Source: an uncultured Nitrospiraceae bacterium (GTDB lineage: Bacteria; Nitrospirota; Nitrospiria; Nitrospirales; Nitrospiraceae). Taken from it: 64,000 bases of DNA. The notes under the pieces were generated by a model. That model ran no database searches. It worked only from the letters and a program-made list of their open reading frames with translations, and had not been told where the DNA came from. This document shows, piece after piece, positions 6,707 through 16,232 of this stretch (positions within the stretch are counted from its first letter, which is position 1; every line of letters starts with the position of its first letter). The stretch covers positions 992,001-1,056,000 of the forward strand of contig CAWJWJ010000001.1 in NCBI GenBank assembly GCA_963846575.1, in the 5' to 3' direction. A program made the translations under genes and the position numbers.

Positions 6707-7289
6707 AGCCCCGGCCCCTGCGAAGCCACCCTCGCAAACAGCCTCTCCTGCTGCGTTCCTGGATTCCCGTCAGAATCTTGTCTTGATCGGCTATCGCGGC
6801 ACCGGAAAGAGCGCGGCGGGAAAGTTTCTGGCCCGCGAGCTGCGCCGGCACCTCGTGTCGACGGATGCGGAGGTGGTCCGGCGGGCGAAGCTCTCCATCC
6901 CCGAGATTGTGGAGACATTCGGGTGGGACCACTTTCGGGATTTGGAATCGGCAGTCTGCCGGGATTTTGCGGGGCGGGACCAGCTCATCATCGACACCGG
7001 GGGCGGCGCCATCCTGCGGCCTGAGAATGTGGAGGCCCTGCGACGCACCGGGACGCTCGTCTGGTTGACCGCGTCGGTCGAGACCATCGCGCGCCGCATC
7101 GGCGGCGATACGCAGCGTCCCTCATTGACCGGCACGAAGTCGTTTACGGAAGAAATTCGCGAGGTCCTGGCGGAACGGATGCCAAAATACCGGGCGGCGG
7201 CCCACCATATGGTGCCGACCGATGGCGTTTCCACGGCGCAGGTCGCCGCGCGCATCATGCAGCAGCTCTCGCACAAGCCGGCCGGATAA
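6696..7289 (+). CDS. aroK: Shikimate kinase
   Basis: P-loop GYRGTGKS, FRDLE, TGGG, RPSL. Confidence 0.93.
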   Translation: MEPEAPAPAKPPSQTASPAAFLDSRQNLVLIGYRGTGKSAAGKFLARELRRHLVSTDAEVVRRAKLSIPEIVETFGWDHFRDLESAVCRDFAGRDQLIIDTGGGAILRPENVEALRRTGTLVWLTASVETIARRIGGDTQRPSLTGTKSFTEEIREVLAERMPKYRAAAHHMVPTDGVSTAQVAARIMQQLSHKPAG

Positions 7290-7373
7290 CACCCCGGACA
7301 GGCGGCCGGCTCACGAGCGGGACGCCTGGCATTCTTGACAACGCCTGCGGAACAATGGTTCTTATACCGGCGC

Positions 7374-7450
7374 GCGCCCGTAGCTCAATTGGATAGAGCA
7401 TCGGACTTCGGATCCGAGGGTTGGGGGTTCAAGTCCCTCCGGGCGCACCA
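7374..7450 (+). tRNA. tRNA-Arg (anticodon TCG)
   Basis: Acceptor GCGCCCG/CGGGCGC, D-arm GCTC/GAGC, anticodon stem TCGGA/TCCGA with loop CTTCGGA, GTTCAAGTCC T-loop, encoded CCA; TTGACA at 7335-7340 upstream. Confidence 0.96.
7406..7450 (+). repeat. attL core (3' part of tRNA-Arg from anticodon loop to CCA)
   Basis: CTTCGGATCCGAGGGTTGGGGGTTCAAGTCCCTCCGGGCGCACCA identical to 16067-16111. Confidence 0.95.
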
Positions 7451-7453
7451 GAT

Positions 7454-7466
7454 AATCAATAGGTTG
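7454..7466 (+). promoter_or_regulatory. IHF-like binding site beside attL
   Basis: AATCAATAGGTTG matches WATCAANNNNTTR. Confidence 0.6.
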
Positions 7467-7496
7467 CATCTTTTCTTCCGTTTTCTCCTCTTGGCT

Positions 7497-7519
7497 GGTC
7501 ACGGTTTTGGTCACGGTTC
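7497..7519 (+). repeat. Putative integrase arm-type sites (2 copies)
   Basis: GGTCACGGTTTT GGTCACGGTTC, identical 23-mer recurs at 15902-15924. Confidence 0.75.
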
Positions 7520-8552
7520 CAGCCAGACTTCCTCGATTCACGGCGTCCCGAAGATGTCCTGGGGCGAGGTGGGCATATCGGAGCGTCGTCTCAATATCGC
7601 GGTGCCCGAGGATCTCCTTCACCGACACGAGATCGACCCCTGCCATGACACGGCGACTAGCTGCGGTATGTCGGAGTGAGTGCCAGCACGCCCCGGTAAT
7701 CCCCGCTCGACGCAGGCCAGGCTCAAACGCGCGCCGGAGGAAGGCCCGGCTGTCCATCGGGTGAGTCACGTCCTTTAATCCTGGAAAGACCCACGCCGAT
7801 CGAAGGAACGAGTCAAATGACCTCAGAATCGGTCTTGGCTCCTTCGCTCAAGGGCACATGCCGGGTTTTTCCTCCCTTCGGCATGGGGAGGGTCAGGACC
7901 TCGTTCTCCAAATCGACCTGGTTCCACCTGAGCGAAAACTGTTCTCCTCGTCTCAGACCCCGTCTCGACGGCGAAGGCCACCAATTTCCACTCCTCCGGG
8001 GTCATCACGCCCCTCAATCGGTCAAGTTCCTCACTGGTCAGGAATCGCGTCCGGTTCGCTTCAGGGAAGAACTTGAGGCTGGAGACTGGGTTCTTGGTGA
8101 GCTTGTCGTCTTTGACGGCTAACATCAGCACATGACGAAGGAAGGCAAAATGCCGGTTGATCGTGGCATCCGCCCACAGTCGTTGCGGTTCCTTCTTGCT
8201 CACCTTCATTTTGGCTCGCATTCTGGCCTGAATGCGCCGGAGATCGTCTACTGAAATCTGGGTGAGCACGCGATTCCCGATGAGCAGCGACCAGCGTCGC
8301 CCATAGAGCACTTCACCTGGCTTGTTGCGGTTGACAGATCCTTCGAGATAGCGATTGATCCACGCCCGAAGCGTAATGTCCTTTCGAGGGGCGAATTTCT
8401 CCGGGAAAAATGTCCCTTCCCGAATGTCGGCCTTCAATCGGCCATACAGGGCCTTGGCCTGTGATTTCGTATCACACCGAAACCAGCGCTCCCGACCGTG
8501 GACGTAGAGGCGCACCCACCAGCCTTCACGGCCTTTCCGCTGCGTGATGCCT

Positions 8553-9219
8553 CTATCCTTTCCCGCTTTTCTTGCCACGATGGCTCTCCTTTCGCTCCCC
8601 GGTCTTCTGGGCCTCGCGCCACTTTCTCGCCGCGACTCGGTTCTGGCAGCGCGGCTGGCAGTATACCTGGTCGCGCCGGATGGCTAAATAGATCGTCCGC
8701 ACTCGGGGCAGCGACGAATGTAGTCCCCGGACTGGACCAAGAGGTGCACAAAGCGGTACTCAAACTCCTTCGCCTTGCGCTTCGCGCTCACGAAGATTGT
8801 TCCGGTCTCGTCGGAGAAGCTGCCCGGCGATACTCACGACCAGGGTGAACTGCGGAAAGGTGAAGGCGGTGTATCGCTTCATGCCAATAGAGTTCCAACT
8901 GCTCCAGGACGGCGGCCTGAATCTCCTGGGCTTCTTTGCGACTGGGAATCGTCTGATAGTTCTTCGCGTTGGGCACCGCTTCCACGCTCCAGCCACTTTC
9001 GGGGGCCACCATCCCACCGTATCGGTCTCCCGTCTCGTCGACAAAGGCCGCGACCTCAAACGCTACCAGCGTCCATTCCGTGGGCGTCAGAGTTTCTAGA
9101 TCGACCTGTAAAAAGCGGAGCACCCACCCGACGGCGCCATCCGGCATCGTGCGGATGCGCTCGATGGCTTTCTGATACTCCTGTTGGAATTCCTGCTCGG
9201 CCTTCCCCTGTGCGCTCAT
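8553..9219 (-). pseudogene. CGNR-type zinc-finger protein (about 221 aa reconstructed), three frameshifts
   Basis: Reconstructed C-terminus IRRCPECGTIYLAIRRDQVYCQPRCQNRVAARKWRE; AAAGGAG RBS; stop overlaps int start. Confidence 0.7.
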
Positions 9220-9424
9220 GCCTTCGGCTCCTTTCTCATGCCGAACCCTCCCCGTATTCCTGATCCCAACACCACCGAAAAAAGTGTCGTGCGGAAGGGC
9301 CGTCTCCACCTGAATTTGTTTGGCAAGTGTACCTCCGCACTTGATAATGGCTGTCAAGAGTCATCACGCCTAAAAAATAAGACGCGTGATCATTTTCCAA
9401 ACCATTCTTCCAAGGAGGTGCCCG

Positions 9425-9634
9425 ATGGTCCCAGTACAAAATTGATCACCATTCGAGAAGCGGCCGAACCGGTTAGGTCTGAAGGAAAGCACGATCAGGA
9501 AATACATCCTGAAACGGCAGATCGCCTATGTGAAGCCGTCGGTGCGAGCGGTGCGGATTCCCATCGAGGAATTGGAACGGATTCTCTCTGCCGGTCTGAG
9601 GCCGGCGATCCCTCAGGGGGAGGGTGCCCGATGA
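9425..9634 (+). pseudogene. Excisionase-like MerR/HTH_17 protein, at least one frameshift
   Basis: Reconstructed KLITIREAAERLGLKESTIRKYILKRQIAYVKPSVRAVRIPIEELERIL; AAGGAGG RBS at 9412-9418; ATGA overlap with next gene. Confidence 0.8.
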
Positions 9635-10346
9635 GCCGCTGGAAGGAGTTTCGGCGCGAACCAGTCGCCGGCGAATGGAGCAGGAAGCAGAAGCGGGGCT
9701 ATCACCGCGTCCGGTCGCTCCTGTGGTTCTGGGAGTCCCATCAGTTCCAGGTGCTCTGGGTCACGCTGTCTACGGCAGAAGGCGGGGATGCGGAGAAGCT
9801 CACCTATCACCACAAGCAACTGCGCCAACGGATCGAACGCCAGCTCGGCTTTGCAGGGTTGGAGTATTACCAGGTGCGGACAGATGAAGGGCATGGCGTG
9901 CTCCATATCTTCTGGGCCTGGCGGGTGCCGGATGGGGAACGCGCTCGCCGGTTCTGGATCTCGCAGGAATGGCTCTCGTCACAATGGGAAGCCCTCCACG
10001 GGGCTCCGGTGGTCTGGATCAAGGCCTACCAGCCCAGCCATCGCTCAAGGAACCGGTTGAGTCGCTACGTCATCAGCCAGTACGTCCAGGATCAATGCTG
10101 GCTACGTGAATATGTGTTGGTCGTGGAAACGGTCGCTTGGGGTTCCCCATCGGGAAGATGTGGGAAGAGATGCGGAACCAATGGCAGACCCAGAATGTCT
10201 ACCGACGCATACGGAAACAGATCGAAGTTCCTCGCATCGTCTTTCTCAAGACCTGGGAGGATCTGCTGTCTGGGCACCCCATCTGGTTCAGTAACACCAT
10301 TCTCCAACTCGTCCTGGGCAAAGGCCTCGTCTGGAGTCCGCTATGA
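9631..10346 (+). pseudogene. Putative rolling-circle replication initiator (HUH-like, about 237 aa reconstructed), two +1 frameshifts
   Basis: Motif I-like WVTLST, motif II-like EGHGVLHIFW, conserved W in SSQWEALHG, motif III-like LSRYVISQYVQDQ; position after xis. Confidence 0.62.
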
Positions 10347-11725: not shown

Positions 11726-13336
11726 ATGGAGGTAACAGTGAAAGCCATCTATAACAAGAGATCTTATGTATCGGCAGTAGGGCTAACGTTGGGATGGCCA
11801 TTCCTTTTGGCCTCAACAGCCGTGGCGAGCGGGTATGAAGAATGTAACCAAATACTCACCCAGGACATCTTTAACAAGGTTCTAAAAAGTGATGTAAGCA
11901 CCGCGTCAGCGTCGGAGGCATACCAGTCGGCATATTTCAAGTCGAACGCCACAGCGGCATACAATGAATATAAGACGGCACATAAAGAAGCGCAGAAAAA
12001 AGGGACAAAGCTTGAGGTTGGAGGTAACTACGGTCCGATTGGTGCGAAGATGGGCCTAGAGTTGACCTCCGAGAAACTCGTTGAAAAAGAAGAGTTCGAG
12101 AAGGCATTTAACAGTGTGCAAAGTCAGGAGTCGGGATCGCAATCCTCTAGTTCCTCCTCAGCTCAATCCCTTGTAAATACATATGCTACATATGTCCGAG
12201 ACCCTGTAACCGTGTCTGCATGGAAAGATTGCGTCTCTCGGACGAAGGACACTAACCTCTACGCGTATGCAAGCCGTGATGGGAAGCGTACATATGTAAA
12301 CGTTATGTGGGTTCCGGGCGCCTTGGCTGGCATGCTACCTTCCATTCCAATAAGCTTCGTAACGCACGACTCGGACATTGTAATTGAAGCGAAATCAGTA
12401 GAACAAATCGCAATAGGGAGCGGTCGGAATTTTGTGGTGACTTGTAGCAAATCTTGCGACAAGGGCTTTCTGGTTACTGTCAACGGGAGCCTGAAAAATT
12501 CCACCGGCGCTCTCGGAGGCTCTTTCACTGCCACTGTGCAGGTACCTCCTAAGCGGTTACCTGTTCCGAAGGCTCCGGGAGTAGTAGCGTCCGTAGATCA
12601 CACATACATTTATGGGATCAATAACAACGGTGAAATGTTCTGGTATGAAAACGATCGACAGACTGATGATAGCCTTGAATGGGCCAGCGATGAGGGAAAG
12701 CTGGTCGGAACAGGGTGGAACTTTGATCAGGTCTTTTCCGGCGGCAATGCGGTTATTTATGGGGTCAAGGATAACGGCGATTTGCTGTGGTATCGCCATG
12801 ACGGGCGAAACGACGGAACGATGAAATGGTCTCCCCAATCTCGATCGAAGGTAGGCGATGGATGGCATTTCAAGCAAATATTTTCGATCGGCAATGGTGT
12901 CATCTACGCTATTAAGGAAAATGGCGACGTGTACTGGTATCGCCATGAAGGGCGAAATGACGGGAGTCTAAGATGGGCCAAAAATTCTGGGCAGCGAGTG
13001 GCCAGTGGGTGGGATTTTAAGCAAATTATTGCTGGCGACAACGGTGTGATCTATGGCGTCACTGACAACGGCGACGTACTTTGGTATCGCCACGAAGGAT
13101 GGAATGATGGTGGCTCGAGTTGGGCAAAAAAGTCCGGAACCAAGGTAAATTCTGGATGGAACTTCGAGAAAGTCTTTTCAATCGGCGGCGGTGTCATCTA
13201 TGGCGTCAAAGATAACGGCGACTTATTTTCATATCAGCATGAAGGACGGAATGATGGTAGCCCGAAATGGGCACCCAGCGATGGACAAAAAATGGGTGAC
13301 CGCTGGAACTTTAGGCAAGTCTTTGCGGGAAAATAG
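11726..13336 (+). CDS. Secreted protein with C-terminal tachylectin-like beta-propeller repeats
   Basis: Signal peptide; five approx. 51-aa repeats (WxFxQvfsgGnGVIYGVKDNGDLLWYRHxGRNDG...W). Confidence 0.85.
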   Translation: MEVTVKAIYNKRSYVSAVGLTLGWPFLLASTAVASGYEECNQILTQDIFNKVLKSDVSTASASEAYQSAYFKSNATAAYNEYKTAHKEAQKKGTKLEVGGNYGPIGAKMGLELTSEKLVEKEEFEKAFNSVQSQESGSQSSSSSSAQSLVNTYATYVRDPVTVSAWKDCVSRTKDTNLYAYASRDGKRTYVNVMWVPGALAGMLPSIPISFVTHDSDIVIEAKSVEQIAIGSGRNFVVTCSKSCDKGFLVTVNGSLKNSTGALGGSFTATVQVPPKRLPVPKAPGVVASVDHTYIYGINNNGEMFWYENDRQTDDSLEWASDEGKLVGTGWNFDQVFSGGNAVIYGVKDNGDLLWYRHDGRNDGTMKWSPQSRSKVGDGWHFKQIFSIGNGVIYAIKENGDVYWYRHEGRNDGSLRWAKNSGQRVASGWDFKQIIAGDNGVIYGVTDNGDVLWYRHEGWNDGGSSWAKKSGTKVNSGWNFEKVFSIGGGVIYGVKDNGDLFSYQHEGRNDGSPKWAPSDGQKMGDRWNFRQVFAGK

Positions 13337-13590
13337 GACCTGATTCAGGCACATCCACAGAGTCCAGTGATGGTCTTTGAGAGGATTATGTGACGCTAAC
13401 CATGAAACTTCACTGAATTGGACACGACCACCTCGGGAATTGATGACTGGGACGCCATCCAAAATCACAGGGTATCTCAGAGTTCAGACGATCACGACCA
13501 CAGACATGACAAAGTAAACTCACCGCTGGACTCAGATCGAGTCCGTCCGATCTTGTTTACCTTTCACAAGCCGAGTTGCAGGAGATACCA

Positions 13591-14433
13591 ATGTTTGTAC
13601 GATTCTATTTGATGATGGGAATCTCTTTGGTGTTTTTCTGTCAGGCGACTCCGTTACTTGCTGAAAATGTCCTCGAGTGGAAGGGTTTTAAAGGGGACAA
13701 TAAGCTAAAAGATGCAGCCAACCTCGATTCCGCTCACATAAAGCAGGGAGATCGGGGACCGCATGTCAGCAAGATACAACACTCTATAAAATTCCTGGAC
13801 TCCGCTTTCATCAGCCAAGAAGAAATGGACACACAAACATATGGTCCATCAACGGCTAAAGCTGTGCTGGGCTACAAAACTTCCCGAAAGATTATTAACC
13901 AGAAATACCAGTCAAAACCTGACAGCATTGTAGGGAAAATGACTATGGTGGCCTTAGATCGCGAGATGAGCCAAAGAGCCATGGAACGCTTTGAAGATCT
14001 CAAATTCCCTGCAGCAATGGAACCTTTCCCAAGTAACGAGGCGAAAGCTCCAGACGGCTTTTCTATCCCAATTCCCAAAACCATTACACGTTCTGGCAAT
14101 ATTATCTCTCTCCGGGGAGCAAGAGTAACAGTGACAATGGGGCCAGAACGCGCCAGTTCATGTAAATATCGCATGGTGATTGATAATGTTCCTCCGGAGA
14201 CTCACAACGACGCGCAACTAGCAAGTGAAGCAGCAGACCATCTGGTTGAAGAAGCCGCGTGGGCGGTAATACTTGATAAAGCAGCAGCCGCTATCACGTT
14301 TGGTTCCACAAAAGTAGGCATCGGTGTATCAGCAGCAGCAGCTTTAATTGTACCATCTCCAATTCTCCGAGAAATTGTGTGGCATGCTGATGTCGATGGG
14401 AGGAAGGTTTGCTACCTATTGGTAACCCAGTAA
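13591..14433 (+). CDS. Secreted peptidoglycan-binding domain protein
   Basis: Signal peptide; IKQGDRGPHVSKIQ...YGPSTAKAV...PDSIVGKMTMVALD; AGGAGA RBS. Confidence 0.75.
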   Translation: MFVRFYLMMGISLVFFCQATPLLAENVLEWKGFKGDNKLKDAANLDSAHIKQGDRGPHVSKIQHSIKFLDSAFISQEEMDTQTYGPSTAKAVLGYKTSRKIINQKYQSKPDSIVGKMTMVALDREMSQRAMERFEDLKFPAAMEPFPSNEAKAPDGFSIPIPKTITRSGNIISLRGARVTVTMGPERASSCKYRMVIDNVPPETHNDAQLASEAADHLVEEAAWAVILDKAAAAITFGSTKVGIGVSAAAALIVPSPILREIVWHADVDGRKVCYLLVTQ

Positions 14434-14760
14434 TCTTACCTCACCGTAGTTTTCAGTTGAAGCCCGCGATCAGCCTGATAGCTACAGATGACACTAGCTT
14501 GAGAAGCCGTTTTAAGGCGAGGGTAAGAGGTTCAATAACTTCGGGCCTATCGAACAGCTCTAAAGGCGTTGATAGGAAAACTGTAATGTTCGACATGAGA
14601 ACAGCTCGGGGAGCCATTGCTTTCATCGAACCATTTGAGGCGGAGTCATTTCAAATCAAGCGTTGCTATTTCTGCTCGCGATGACGCTTAAGGCTTAGGT
14701 TGAACAAGAGGCCGGCCTGTAGGTATCAGCGACTAGCAGCATTTGCGCCATCAAGCTATA

Positions 14761-15495
14761 CTATTGGATAAATGGGGTCGAACCCGATTCGTGGAATTGC
14801 TCTATCAATTGCCCTGCGCACTTGTTCCCAGCAATCGCGAGTTGCTGCACCATAAATATCATGCCCCATTCGGCTTGTTCTCGCCATTCGGACCGTACGT
14901 CCAGTGAACCAACAGAGCATTGACCCTGCCAAACCACCGTGGAGTCCTTGAGTCGAATGAGACGGGCACGTGCCTGATAGTAGAGGTTGAACTTCTTGCC
15001 CAAGACGTTAAACATGCCAGCGTCGGATATCCACAAGCTTGACACCTCAATGTTGAAGGGGTCGCGCTCGTGTAAAAATGCTTTACGTGATGTAAAGTCC
15101 AACACATAGCCATCACCGAAGGTTTCCCCTAACTCTGTTATTCCCTCTCGAATGCAACAAGATCGCGTTAATGACCACCGGTGTCGCCACACCACAGGTA
15201 TGGGCACGGATCGTATATTGGTAAGACCGGCTTGAGCCATCAATTGGGAAGACACCTGCTCTTTTATGATGTCGATAGGGTCTGATAAAAGCAGTCCGTG
15301 CGTGGAAGCTAGACCTGGTGCATAGGACACAAAAATACCGTCGCCCTGGCGCCAATGGACTGCTTGAATCAGTGGGATGTGCTGGAGCTCAGCCCTCTGC
15401 TGGTCCGATAGATTAAGCCGCCCAGTTCCCCCTATACATCCAAGCGTGCTCACTATGAAAAGGACGACAATCAGTCGCAATGCGATTCTAAACAT
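14761..15495 (-). CDS. Hypothetical lipoprotein
   Basis: Long ORF with MFRIALRLIVVLFIVSTLGC lipobox. Confidence 0.65.
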   Translation of the reverse strand: MFRIALRLIVVLFIVSTLGCIGGTGRLNLSDQQRAELQHIPLIQAVHWRQGDGIFVSYAPGLASTHGLLLSDPIDIIKEQVSSQLMAQAGLTNIRSVPIPVVWRHRWSLTRSCCIREGITELGETFGDGYVLDFTSRKAFLHERDPFNIEVSSLWISDAGMFNVLGKKFNLYYQARARLIRLKDSTVVWQGQCSVGSLDVRSEWREQAEWGMIFMVQQLAIAGNKCAGQLIEQFHESGSTPFIQ

Positions 15496-15901
15496 CAGAT
15501 TTCCATGTACGAGGGTGTGAAGCATCTGGTGGAGATCGGAAAACGGGGCAGTCTTGAGCTCGAGTCACAGTTGTGGAACGGCCCGCTAGCAGATGTTTCA
15601 CAGCTCGGGTAGTCGCACGCTATCCCTCAACATCCTAGTTAAATGGATGAATAATGCTAGGGAAAGTTGTAAATGGTCGTGCGGCGCCATCTGGGAGATT
15701 TTCCCGAGCACGATCGGCGCGTCCGGTTTAGTCTAGGGATTGAGCCGTTTCGATGATCAGGTAATTCTTTCGGGAGGAGGTCGCTCTATCGCTAACAGCA
15801 TAGAAGATGGCCGTCGCGATTGGGTCGAAAGCCGGAAAGCTCTTGATCCGCTCTATGGGCAATCCGGTTCACACGGAAGGAGCATATTGGACGGCATTCT
15901 C

Positions 15902-15947
15902 GGTCACGGTTTTGGTCACGGTTCGGTCCCGGTTTTGGCCCCGATTG
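15902..15947 (+). repeat. Putative arm-type sites (4 tandem copies, 2 degenerate)
   Basis: GGTCACGGTTTT GGTCACGGTTC GGTCCCGGTTTT GGCCCCGATTG. Confidence 0.75.
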
Positions 15948-15989: not shown

Positions 15990-16002
15990 TAATCGATTGA
16001 TT
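15990..16002 (-). promoter_or_regulatory. IHF-like site between arm repeats and attR
   Basis: Reverse strand AATCAATCGATTA matches WATCAANNNNTTR. Confidence 0.55.
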
Positions 16003-16066
16003 TGCAAAACTAAAATCACGTTCTGTCACCACCAATCGCTGTCAGTCTCTATGTCACTTTGTGAGC

Positions 16067-16111
16067 CTTCGGATCCGAGGGTTGGGGGTTCAAGTCCCTC
16101 CGGGCGCACCA
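16067..16111 (+). repeat. attR core (duplicated tRNA-Arg 3' fragment)
   Basis: 45/45 identical to 7406-7450. Confidence 0.95.
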
Positions 16112-16232
16112 TATAATCAATCGGTTGCATCTCCCCATCTCGTTTTCCCTCTTCACCGGTCACGGTTTCAGCGGGACTGCTTCGACTCACTTCGTCCCGA
16201 AACTGCCTCGTGGAAGGCGGGCGTATCGAGCG
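16112..16232 (-). pseudogene. Remnant 3' end of a second, related integrase
   Basis: Aligns with the sequence following attL; translates RYARL / FRDEVSRSSPAETVTGEEGKRDGEMQPIDY vs RYAHL / LRDAVNRGSLAGTVT...EEKMQPIDY. Confidence 0.75.

Follow-up and report, generated by a model that had tools for sequence, protein, structure and literature searches.

An integrase gene of Nitrospira elements that spans its own attP, with a candidate clamp tether on the free tail of sister elements

The window, that is, the whole 64,000-nucleotide stretch of Nitrospiraceae DNA analysed here, carries an integrated element whose integrase gene (int) spans its own attP, and integration at the anticodon of tRNA-Arg swaps the C-terminal tail of the enzyme. 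In most sister elements the piece lost in this swap resembles a clamp-binding motif, which we regard, with somewhat more confidence than doubt, as a likely tether to replication. Under the mechanism that we propose, the integrase made from the circle would be held through this motif on clamps sitting on newly copied DNA, and the tether would favour integration, or the persistence of the integrase in an incoming or excised circle; an effect on integration would be expected because stronger clamp binding raises transposition (PMC4549789). Integration would remove the tether and damp the resident enzyme, as in Mx8, and the integrated tail would be whatever the host tRNA supplies. The interesting part of this system is to be found in the sister elements and not in the window copy: as assembled, the integrase of the window cannot act because it is frameshifted, and its tail swap changes only an acidic tail that bears no sign of selection.

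The element, its attachment sites and the integrase frame

The target of the element is tRNA-Arg(TCG), the single tRNA gene of the window, which is rebuilt at the left junction (7374 to 7450, plus strand) and is present in only one copy in the host genome. Alignment places the left copy of the att core at 7406 to 7450 (plus) and the right copy, which is the displaced 3' part of the tRNA, at 16067 to 16111 (plus); from the opening base of the anticodon loop (7406 and 16067) onward the two are identical, and they bound an element of 8661 bp with a low-GC cargo. Putative arm-type integrase sites are seen as direct repeats within the integrase 3' end (7497 to 7519, plus) and in the far arm (15902 to 15947, plus), and genome-wide the 18-mer of the arm repeat occurs only at the repeats of 7497 to 7519 and at 15902. 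Scored against what we take to be the IHF consensus, one match at 7454 to 7466 (plus) is overprinted by the integrase frame and another lies in the far arm at 15990 to 16002 (minus); the element holds three such matches, all in the arms or the scar described next, and the 4.2 Mb genome holds 87. Beyond the right core lies the scar of an older related element (16112 to 16232, plus), made up of an IHF-like site at 16115 to 16127, a single arm repeat and what is left of a decayed integrase gene at its 3' end, and the DNA 3' of the tRNA in five element-free relatives is unrelated to it. Together, the core, the two-arm repeats with predicted IHF-like sites and an excisionase-like gene form a lambda-type layout at a tRNA anticodon. 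The relatives of the element are Nitrospira. A scan of 7200 to 7700 for promoters and terminators returned no site, where only 0.1 and 0.3, respectively, were expected.

In this assembly the integrase is spread over three frames, all on the minus strand: an N-terminal piece (7958 to 8578) whose intact relatives are 404 residues long and 90-96% identical, a middle piece with the first catalytic Arg (7831 to 7959), which occupies another frame between two +1 frameshifts near 7956-7961 and at about 7830, and a C-terminal piece with the HxxR and Tyr motifs (7362 to 7829). The two frameshifts cut the tail-bearing piece off from the first catalytic Arg and from the N-terminal domains. From the catalytic domain (Pfam Phage_integrase), the frame of 7362-7829 runs without a stop through the arm repeats, the IHF-like site, the core and the whole of tRNA-Arg(TCG) to a stop at 7362-7364, as an earlier note on this DNA had it when it placed the att core inside an integrase frame antisense to the tRNA. 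All catalytic motifs of the integrase lie upstream of the core and the crossover falls about 57 codons past the catalytic Tyr, which the note also put upstream in both forms of the enzyme. The note overlooked that the integrase of the window copy is broken by the two frameshifts. A PDB sequence search returned generic tyrosine recombinases only.

In the integrated state the tail consists of 14 residues and a stop (7362 to 7406, minus) drawn from the tRNA 5' half and host DNA. In the free state it would consist of 13 residues and a stop from the far arm (16026 to 16067, minus), the stop standing at codon 14, where sister elements have eight more codons. Joining the ends into a computed circle gave this same 13-residue tail with each of the three crossover points tried, and the computed free and integrated forms of the window integrase differ in their C-terminal sequence; the proposal that integration swaps the tail is thus borne out by the reconstruction, down to the free tail originally noted. 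The remnant of a second integrase at the right end (16205-16068) matches integrase residues 341-390 at 62% and does keep the same frame. Its frame had also been offered as support for genuine read-through, which we reject: what remains there is the scar of an older copy and contains no gene, so that its frame is inherited and says nothing about selection.

An unrelated integrase of the host genome at tRNA-Val (G000:C1, about 852113-852284, plus) likewise reads antisense into its tRNA, in the same G-x-E-P frame, and two paralogues of it, at tRNA-Arg(CCT) and tRNA-Thr, stop before their tRNAs. Since an unrelated enzyme of the same genome also reads through, a single case of read-through is weak evidence.

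The other core genes of the element share the damage seen in the integrase. Upstream of int lies a conserved, frameshifted gene (8556 to 9300, minus), whose intact relative has a weak match to the CGNR zinc finger, below the cut-off; it is followed by an excisionase-like HTH_17 gene with a frameshifted 5' end (9410 to 9631, plus, the left coordinate being approximate) and by a frameshifted Rep/relaxase-like gene (9631 to 10343, plus) with an HUH-like motif recognised by eye. The Rep-like protein is conserved and 237 residues long, and neither it nor its relative (L021:2962-3672) has a Pfam or PHROG match. The low-GC cargo (11726 to 15525) encodes a protein with tachylectin repeats along with two others that have no Pfam match; the first of its genes (11726-13336) specifies a secreted-looking protein with four tachylectin-like repeats of 49 residues, with a period of 147 bp. 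Single-base indels, predominantly insertions and for the most part not in long runs, shift the frame of all four core genes (7830-10137), and the flanking host genes aroK and pal are whole. Over 2.9 kb aligned with a 90% identical relative (L198), 10 insertions and 2 deletions of one base are counted. This pattern looks like long-read error, but it could be decay.

The read-through frame among relatives

In a search with the N-terminal piece, which lacks the tail, 477 proteins were found. Leaving out the window's own, the best 119 comprise 70 that enter tRNA-Arg in the same frame, 17 of the Gln type, 12 with another ending (among them four near-identical proteins whose stop comes right in front of the tRNA) and 20 fragments. 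Further relatives were the best 80 of 244 from a metagenome scan and the best 80 of 106 from a genome scan, ranked against a tail-bearing query. Keeping rows with a recognisable catalytic motif and a downstream tRNA T-arm reduced 183 loci to 151 rows and 134 distinct spacers, two of which (L187 and L077) were reassigned to Gln by their anticodon. Among these best-ranked relatives, 102 of the 107 distinct Arg-targeting spacers (anticodons TCG, ACG, TCT and CCG) read through, in one frame, and the other five stop before or inside the core; the genome scan alone (its best 80 of 106) gives 36 of 40. The 27 distinct Gln-targeting spacers behave differently, 19 stopping before the anticodon and eight reading through in another frame. 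Judged from these alignments, the open frame is kept across the Arg clade, with exceptions, and read-through is a trait of the family; it is the family data that put it above chance. The comparison of stop positions in homologues thereby upholds the original suggestion that the read-through is real.

The distance from the catalytic Tyr to the T-loop tells a similar story. One length is common to 70 of the 107 spacers; over the whole set, 13 different lengths are multiples of three and five are not, each of the latter a singleton. Non-modal lengths stay in frame in 12 of 17 cases (binomial p 0.002), or in 10 of 15 when repeat-unit deletions are removed (p 0.009), where lengths are counted as events instead of being mapped on a tree and kin are not independent. 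Within the variable spacer, which is nine codons long, 32 copies less than 85% identical contain no in-frame stop against 4.5 expected, and in the other two frames stops occur in eight and seven of the same copies. The same 32 dereplicated copies show no codon-position bias, and the sequence is otherwise unconstrained. Every read-through copy conserves the stretch that is not swapped, which consists of the IHF-like site and the 3' half of the tRNA, and the IHF segment of this stretch also shows no codon-position bias (0.355/0.268/0.333).

In a second branch, which targets tRNA-Gln (L077, L085, L087, L088, L108, L187, L193 and L197), the core is read through in a different frame, and in L108 the free and integrated tails are distinct. 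Given the frame of this branch and the L108 tails, tail swapping may have arisen twice in the integrase family. A contig from a viral collection (L198:1915-4410) carries an integrase whose frame crosses the tRNA core and enters a second element, one that has an integrase of another family; this gives a third kind of tail.

Free tails and the clamp-like motif of sister elements

Past the core, integrated tails run for 1 to 62 residues as set by the host sequence, and their ends are heterogeneous, the commonest being CSIH (31), SLEG (23) and RAPV (11). Neither integrated nor free ends carry a shared tag or degron of the ssrA kind, and the idea of a common degron on the integrated tails was dropped as no common end was found. 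Free tails were derived from the sequences of 63 distinct far arms (eight Gln and 55 Arg); contiguous free-type forms also exist naturally (L164, L101 and P0205). Of the 55 Arg tails, 54 are 9-21 residues long and 50 are net negative. The earlier note had read a functional contrast into the acidic free tail and the basic integrated one. That contrast turned out to be weak: read in the homologous register, six of the eight Gln arms are acidic too, though the integrase there stops earlier or arrives in another frame, and because these arms are untranslated in that register, acidity is poor evidence of selection. Moreover, the motif-less Arg arms (36, or 24 after dereplication) show no codon-position bias (0.487/0.541/0.601) and avoid stops no more than their column frequencies predict, which leaves the acidic tail unsupported as a selected trait.

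The picture changes in the sister elements, where the free tail mostly has Gly, not a stop, at codon 14 and closes with Q[MLI]D[MIL]F.L*. Arms came from two sources that did not select for the motif, namely the integrase loci and a search at the DNA level through 371 family genomes, 21 of them positive, and 20 of the 24 distinct arms of the window's lineage carry it; the four without it are one scar with a mutated core and an F-to-L change and the arms of the window itself, L041 and L014, which stop at codon 14. Across 19 motif-matching arms, divergence by codon position is 0.053/0.000/0.209 in the motif and 0.247/0.279/0.233 in the next 60 bases downstream. In a hand tally, six of seven possible synonymous transitions are seen, a stop-to-stop swap included, against two of 17 non-synonymous ones (Fisher p 0.0013), and the remaining changes are among M, L and I. 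These arms are close kin from one genus and thus not independent. Homologous untranslated Gln arms (n=5) drift at all positions (0.275/0.225/0.400); Q is lost in four of them and the full motif can be read in one. This substitution pattern indicates that the motif is conserved at the protein level. Since one Gln arm keeps the motif and Gln and motif arms are 69% identical, the DNA at the motif, which overlaps the AT-rich flank of an IHF-like site, must be under some constraint itself or have been shared recently. An integrase free of stops accompanies 12 distinct motif arms (17 loci).

What might such a motif bind? With Q at position 1, hydrophobic residues at positions 2, 4 and 5 and a place near the C-terminus, it fits the beta-clamp consensus QL[S/D]LF given in PMC11417375 and PMC3971601. 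Among the stop-ended frames of the host genome, 164,849 in all, a single one has the motif at its end, and it encodes uracil-DNA glycosylase; the motif pattern had no match in the viral contigs. In that host glycosylase (L286:287-967, minus, G000:C2) the clamp-binding-like motif follows a low-complexity linker, which suggests that this form of the motif is the host's own version of the clamp motif. In order to model the contact, a 35-residue core-plus-tail peptide of the sister genome G001 was predicted in complex with DnaN of the same genome, using alignments made for the purpose. The complex scored 0.67 against 0.00 for the best control, on a scale whose mark 116 of 157 solved pairs attain and only 2 of 215 mismatched ones; at least 52% of contacts recur between runs and the pLDDT of the partner is at least 43. 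Contacts are confined to tail residues 27-33 and involve clamp residues 151, 176-181, 252, 257 and 370-375 among others, which we take to be the usual peptide pocket. The motif peptide is therefore predicted by the model to dock in the pocket of the host beta-clamp, and because clamp-peptide complexes have already been solved, the pass may reflect memory or likeness only.

A quick tree was built from 111 of the 134 rows, chosen for having 300 or more upstream residues. In it L041, the closest relative of the window element, is nested in a clade of motif-bearing elements, and because the base of the tree was left open, the tree does not polarise gain against loss of the motif. We put forward, as a serious but tentative possibility, that this lineage evolved a clamp tether out of an attP arm by reading through one stop beyond the crossover, so that recombination toggles the integrase between a replisome-tethered form that integrates and an untethered resident form, and would itself turn a contact with a host protein on or off.

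Alternative readings and known systems

The clamp reading leaves the frame in motif-less Arg elements, the window's included, without explanation; it does not account for the clade-wide frame because the motif-less arms lack codon bias and stop avoidance. In those elements the frame may owe its upkeep to an effect on stability or to some role of the unswapped stretch. The stability effect would take the form of a proteolysis switch, the second option of the earlier note, in which the integrase is shielded by its acidic free tail and becomes a target for degradation once it bears the host-derived one, much like the ssrA-like tag swap of the BPs repressor (PMC9262239). Such a switch would account for the frame without the motif, is consistent with free tails that are short and nearly always negative, and fits with charged C-termini being known to stabilise proteins, but integrated ends of 1-62 residues share no common tag, the acidity tracks DNA repeats and the 13-residue tails lack a selection signal, and we consider it quite unlikely. 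If it is instead the unswapped part that matters, the residues from the IHF site and the tRNA 3' half would form a structural strand, or translation antisense to the tRNA would shield the int mRNA, with the swap incidental outside the motif lineage. This would explain both the conservation of the stretch in all read-through copies and the avoidance of stops, the latter with no need for a selected free tail; that conservation is, however, fully expected from tRNA and IHF-like DNA, the IHF segment is without codon-position bias and Gln-targeting relatives do without the stretch, all of which makes this explanation very improbable.

The frame could also be kept by neutral overprinting, with the attP arm packed into the end of int, the arm geometry keeping the frame, the tails inert and the motif a by-product of the IHF flank. 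We judge this unlikely, given that the variable spacer holds no stops where 4.5 are expected, that length changes stay in frame (12 of 17 non-modal lengths, or 10 of 15) and that the motif varies almost only at third codon positions. It is nonetheless in keeping with neutral overprinting that the arm repeats and IHF-like sites lie within the frame, that a single length prevails among the spacers, that untranslated arms are commonly acidic as well, that the spacer has no codon-position bias, that read-through has its exceptions and that the unrelated integrase of the host genome also reads through.

Among known systems the closest is Mx8, where attP lies within int and integration replaces the C-terminus, leaving an enzyme that is less active but not dead (PMC4701971 and PMC6070905; Islander, PMC4383910); the parallel had been proposed from the outset and stands. 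Mx8 and the window element share a tyrosine integrase, a tRNA-gene target, attP within int and a replaced C-terminus, and the core downstream of the catalytic Tyr, the two C-termini and an arrangement conserved among relatives are likewise found here. The two systems differ in that Mx8 swaps 112 residues for 13, whereas the Nitrospira elements swap only 9-21 residues; in addition, the Nitrospira element is a small island and not a phage, its tail is overprinted on the DNA sites of the arm, and what the sister lineage loses is a clamp-binding-like motif. We see the Nitrospira case as a form of Mx8-type tail swapping in which integration probably deletes a clamp tether.

Other precedents resemble this case less closely. 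The suicidal integrases of archaea (SSV1, pTN3, pT26-2) also have att inside the integrase gene and a tRNA target, and they split into two inactive halves (PMC8371274), whereas the Nitrospira catalytic domain stays whole; with every catalytic motif upstream of the core, an integrase of the SSV type was rejected. In mycobacteriophage BPs, recombination at a tRNA attB similarly removes a short C-terminal linear motif, but that phage has its attP in the gene for the repressor, and what it loses is a degron of the ssrA kind (PMC9262239), unlike the attP in int and the clamp-tether-like motif seen here; a degron swap of the BPs type was set aside, as neither form bears a trace of an ssrA-like tag. 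Clamp-binding transposases (IS families, Tn3 TnpA and Tn7 TnsE) share a QL[S/D]LF-like motif that is often C-terminal and easily lost or made anew (PMC3971601 and PMC11417375); their motif is permanent, whereas that of the Nitrospira integrase would be removed by recombination. In the literature covered by our search, mainly outside the subscription journals, we found no tyrosine integrase with a clamp motif, nor a clamp motif removed by recombination.

An attP within int has been described as rare, and here it runs through a large integrase clade. In Mx8 integration edits the integrase tail and the literature consulted names no partner for the swapped piece; for one Nitrospira lineage a candidate partner can be named, since the piece exchanged there is a motif of five residues, which makes the switch testable by point changes. 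If the reading is true, site-specific integration would be linked to host replication, a link so far known for transposases, directionality would be controlled without an extra protein, and the motif would have been born from an overprinted DNA-binding arm. Annotations of integrated copies would miss the functional C-terminus.

Some further observations concern the att arms. In the genus relatives L010, L012 and L015 only the last 100-200 bases of int, the attL arm, stand beside the tRNA, followed by other genes; these are integrase-less derivatives. The Gln(TTG) far arms of L068, L070, L192, L225, L227 and L228 resemble the motif-bearing Arg(TCG) arms more closely, at 69%, than does the arm of the window element, at 55%; an exchange of arms between elements with different targets is suggested. 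Finally, a motif-bearing arm of the Arg(TCG) type with an altered core lies in tandem at a tRNA-Arg(TCT) island (L072:4884-6129), possibly as a secondary-site insertion.
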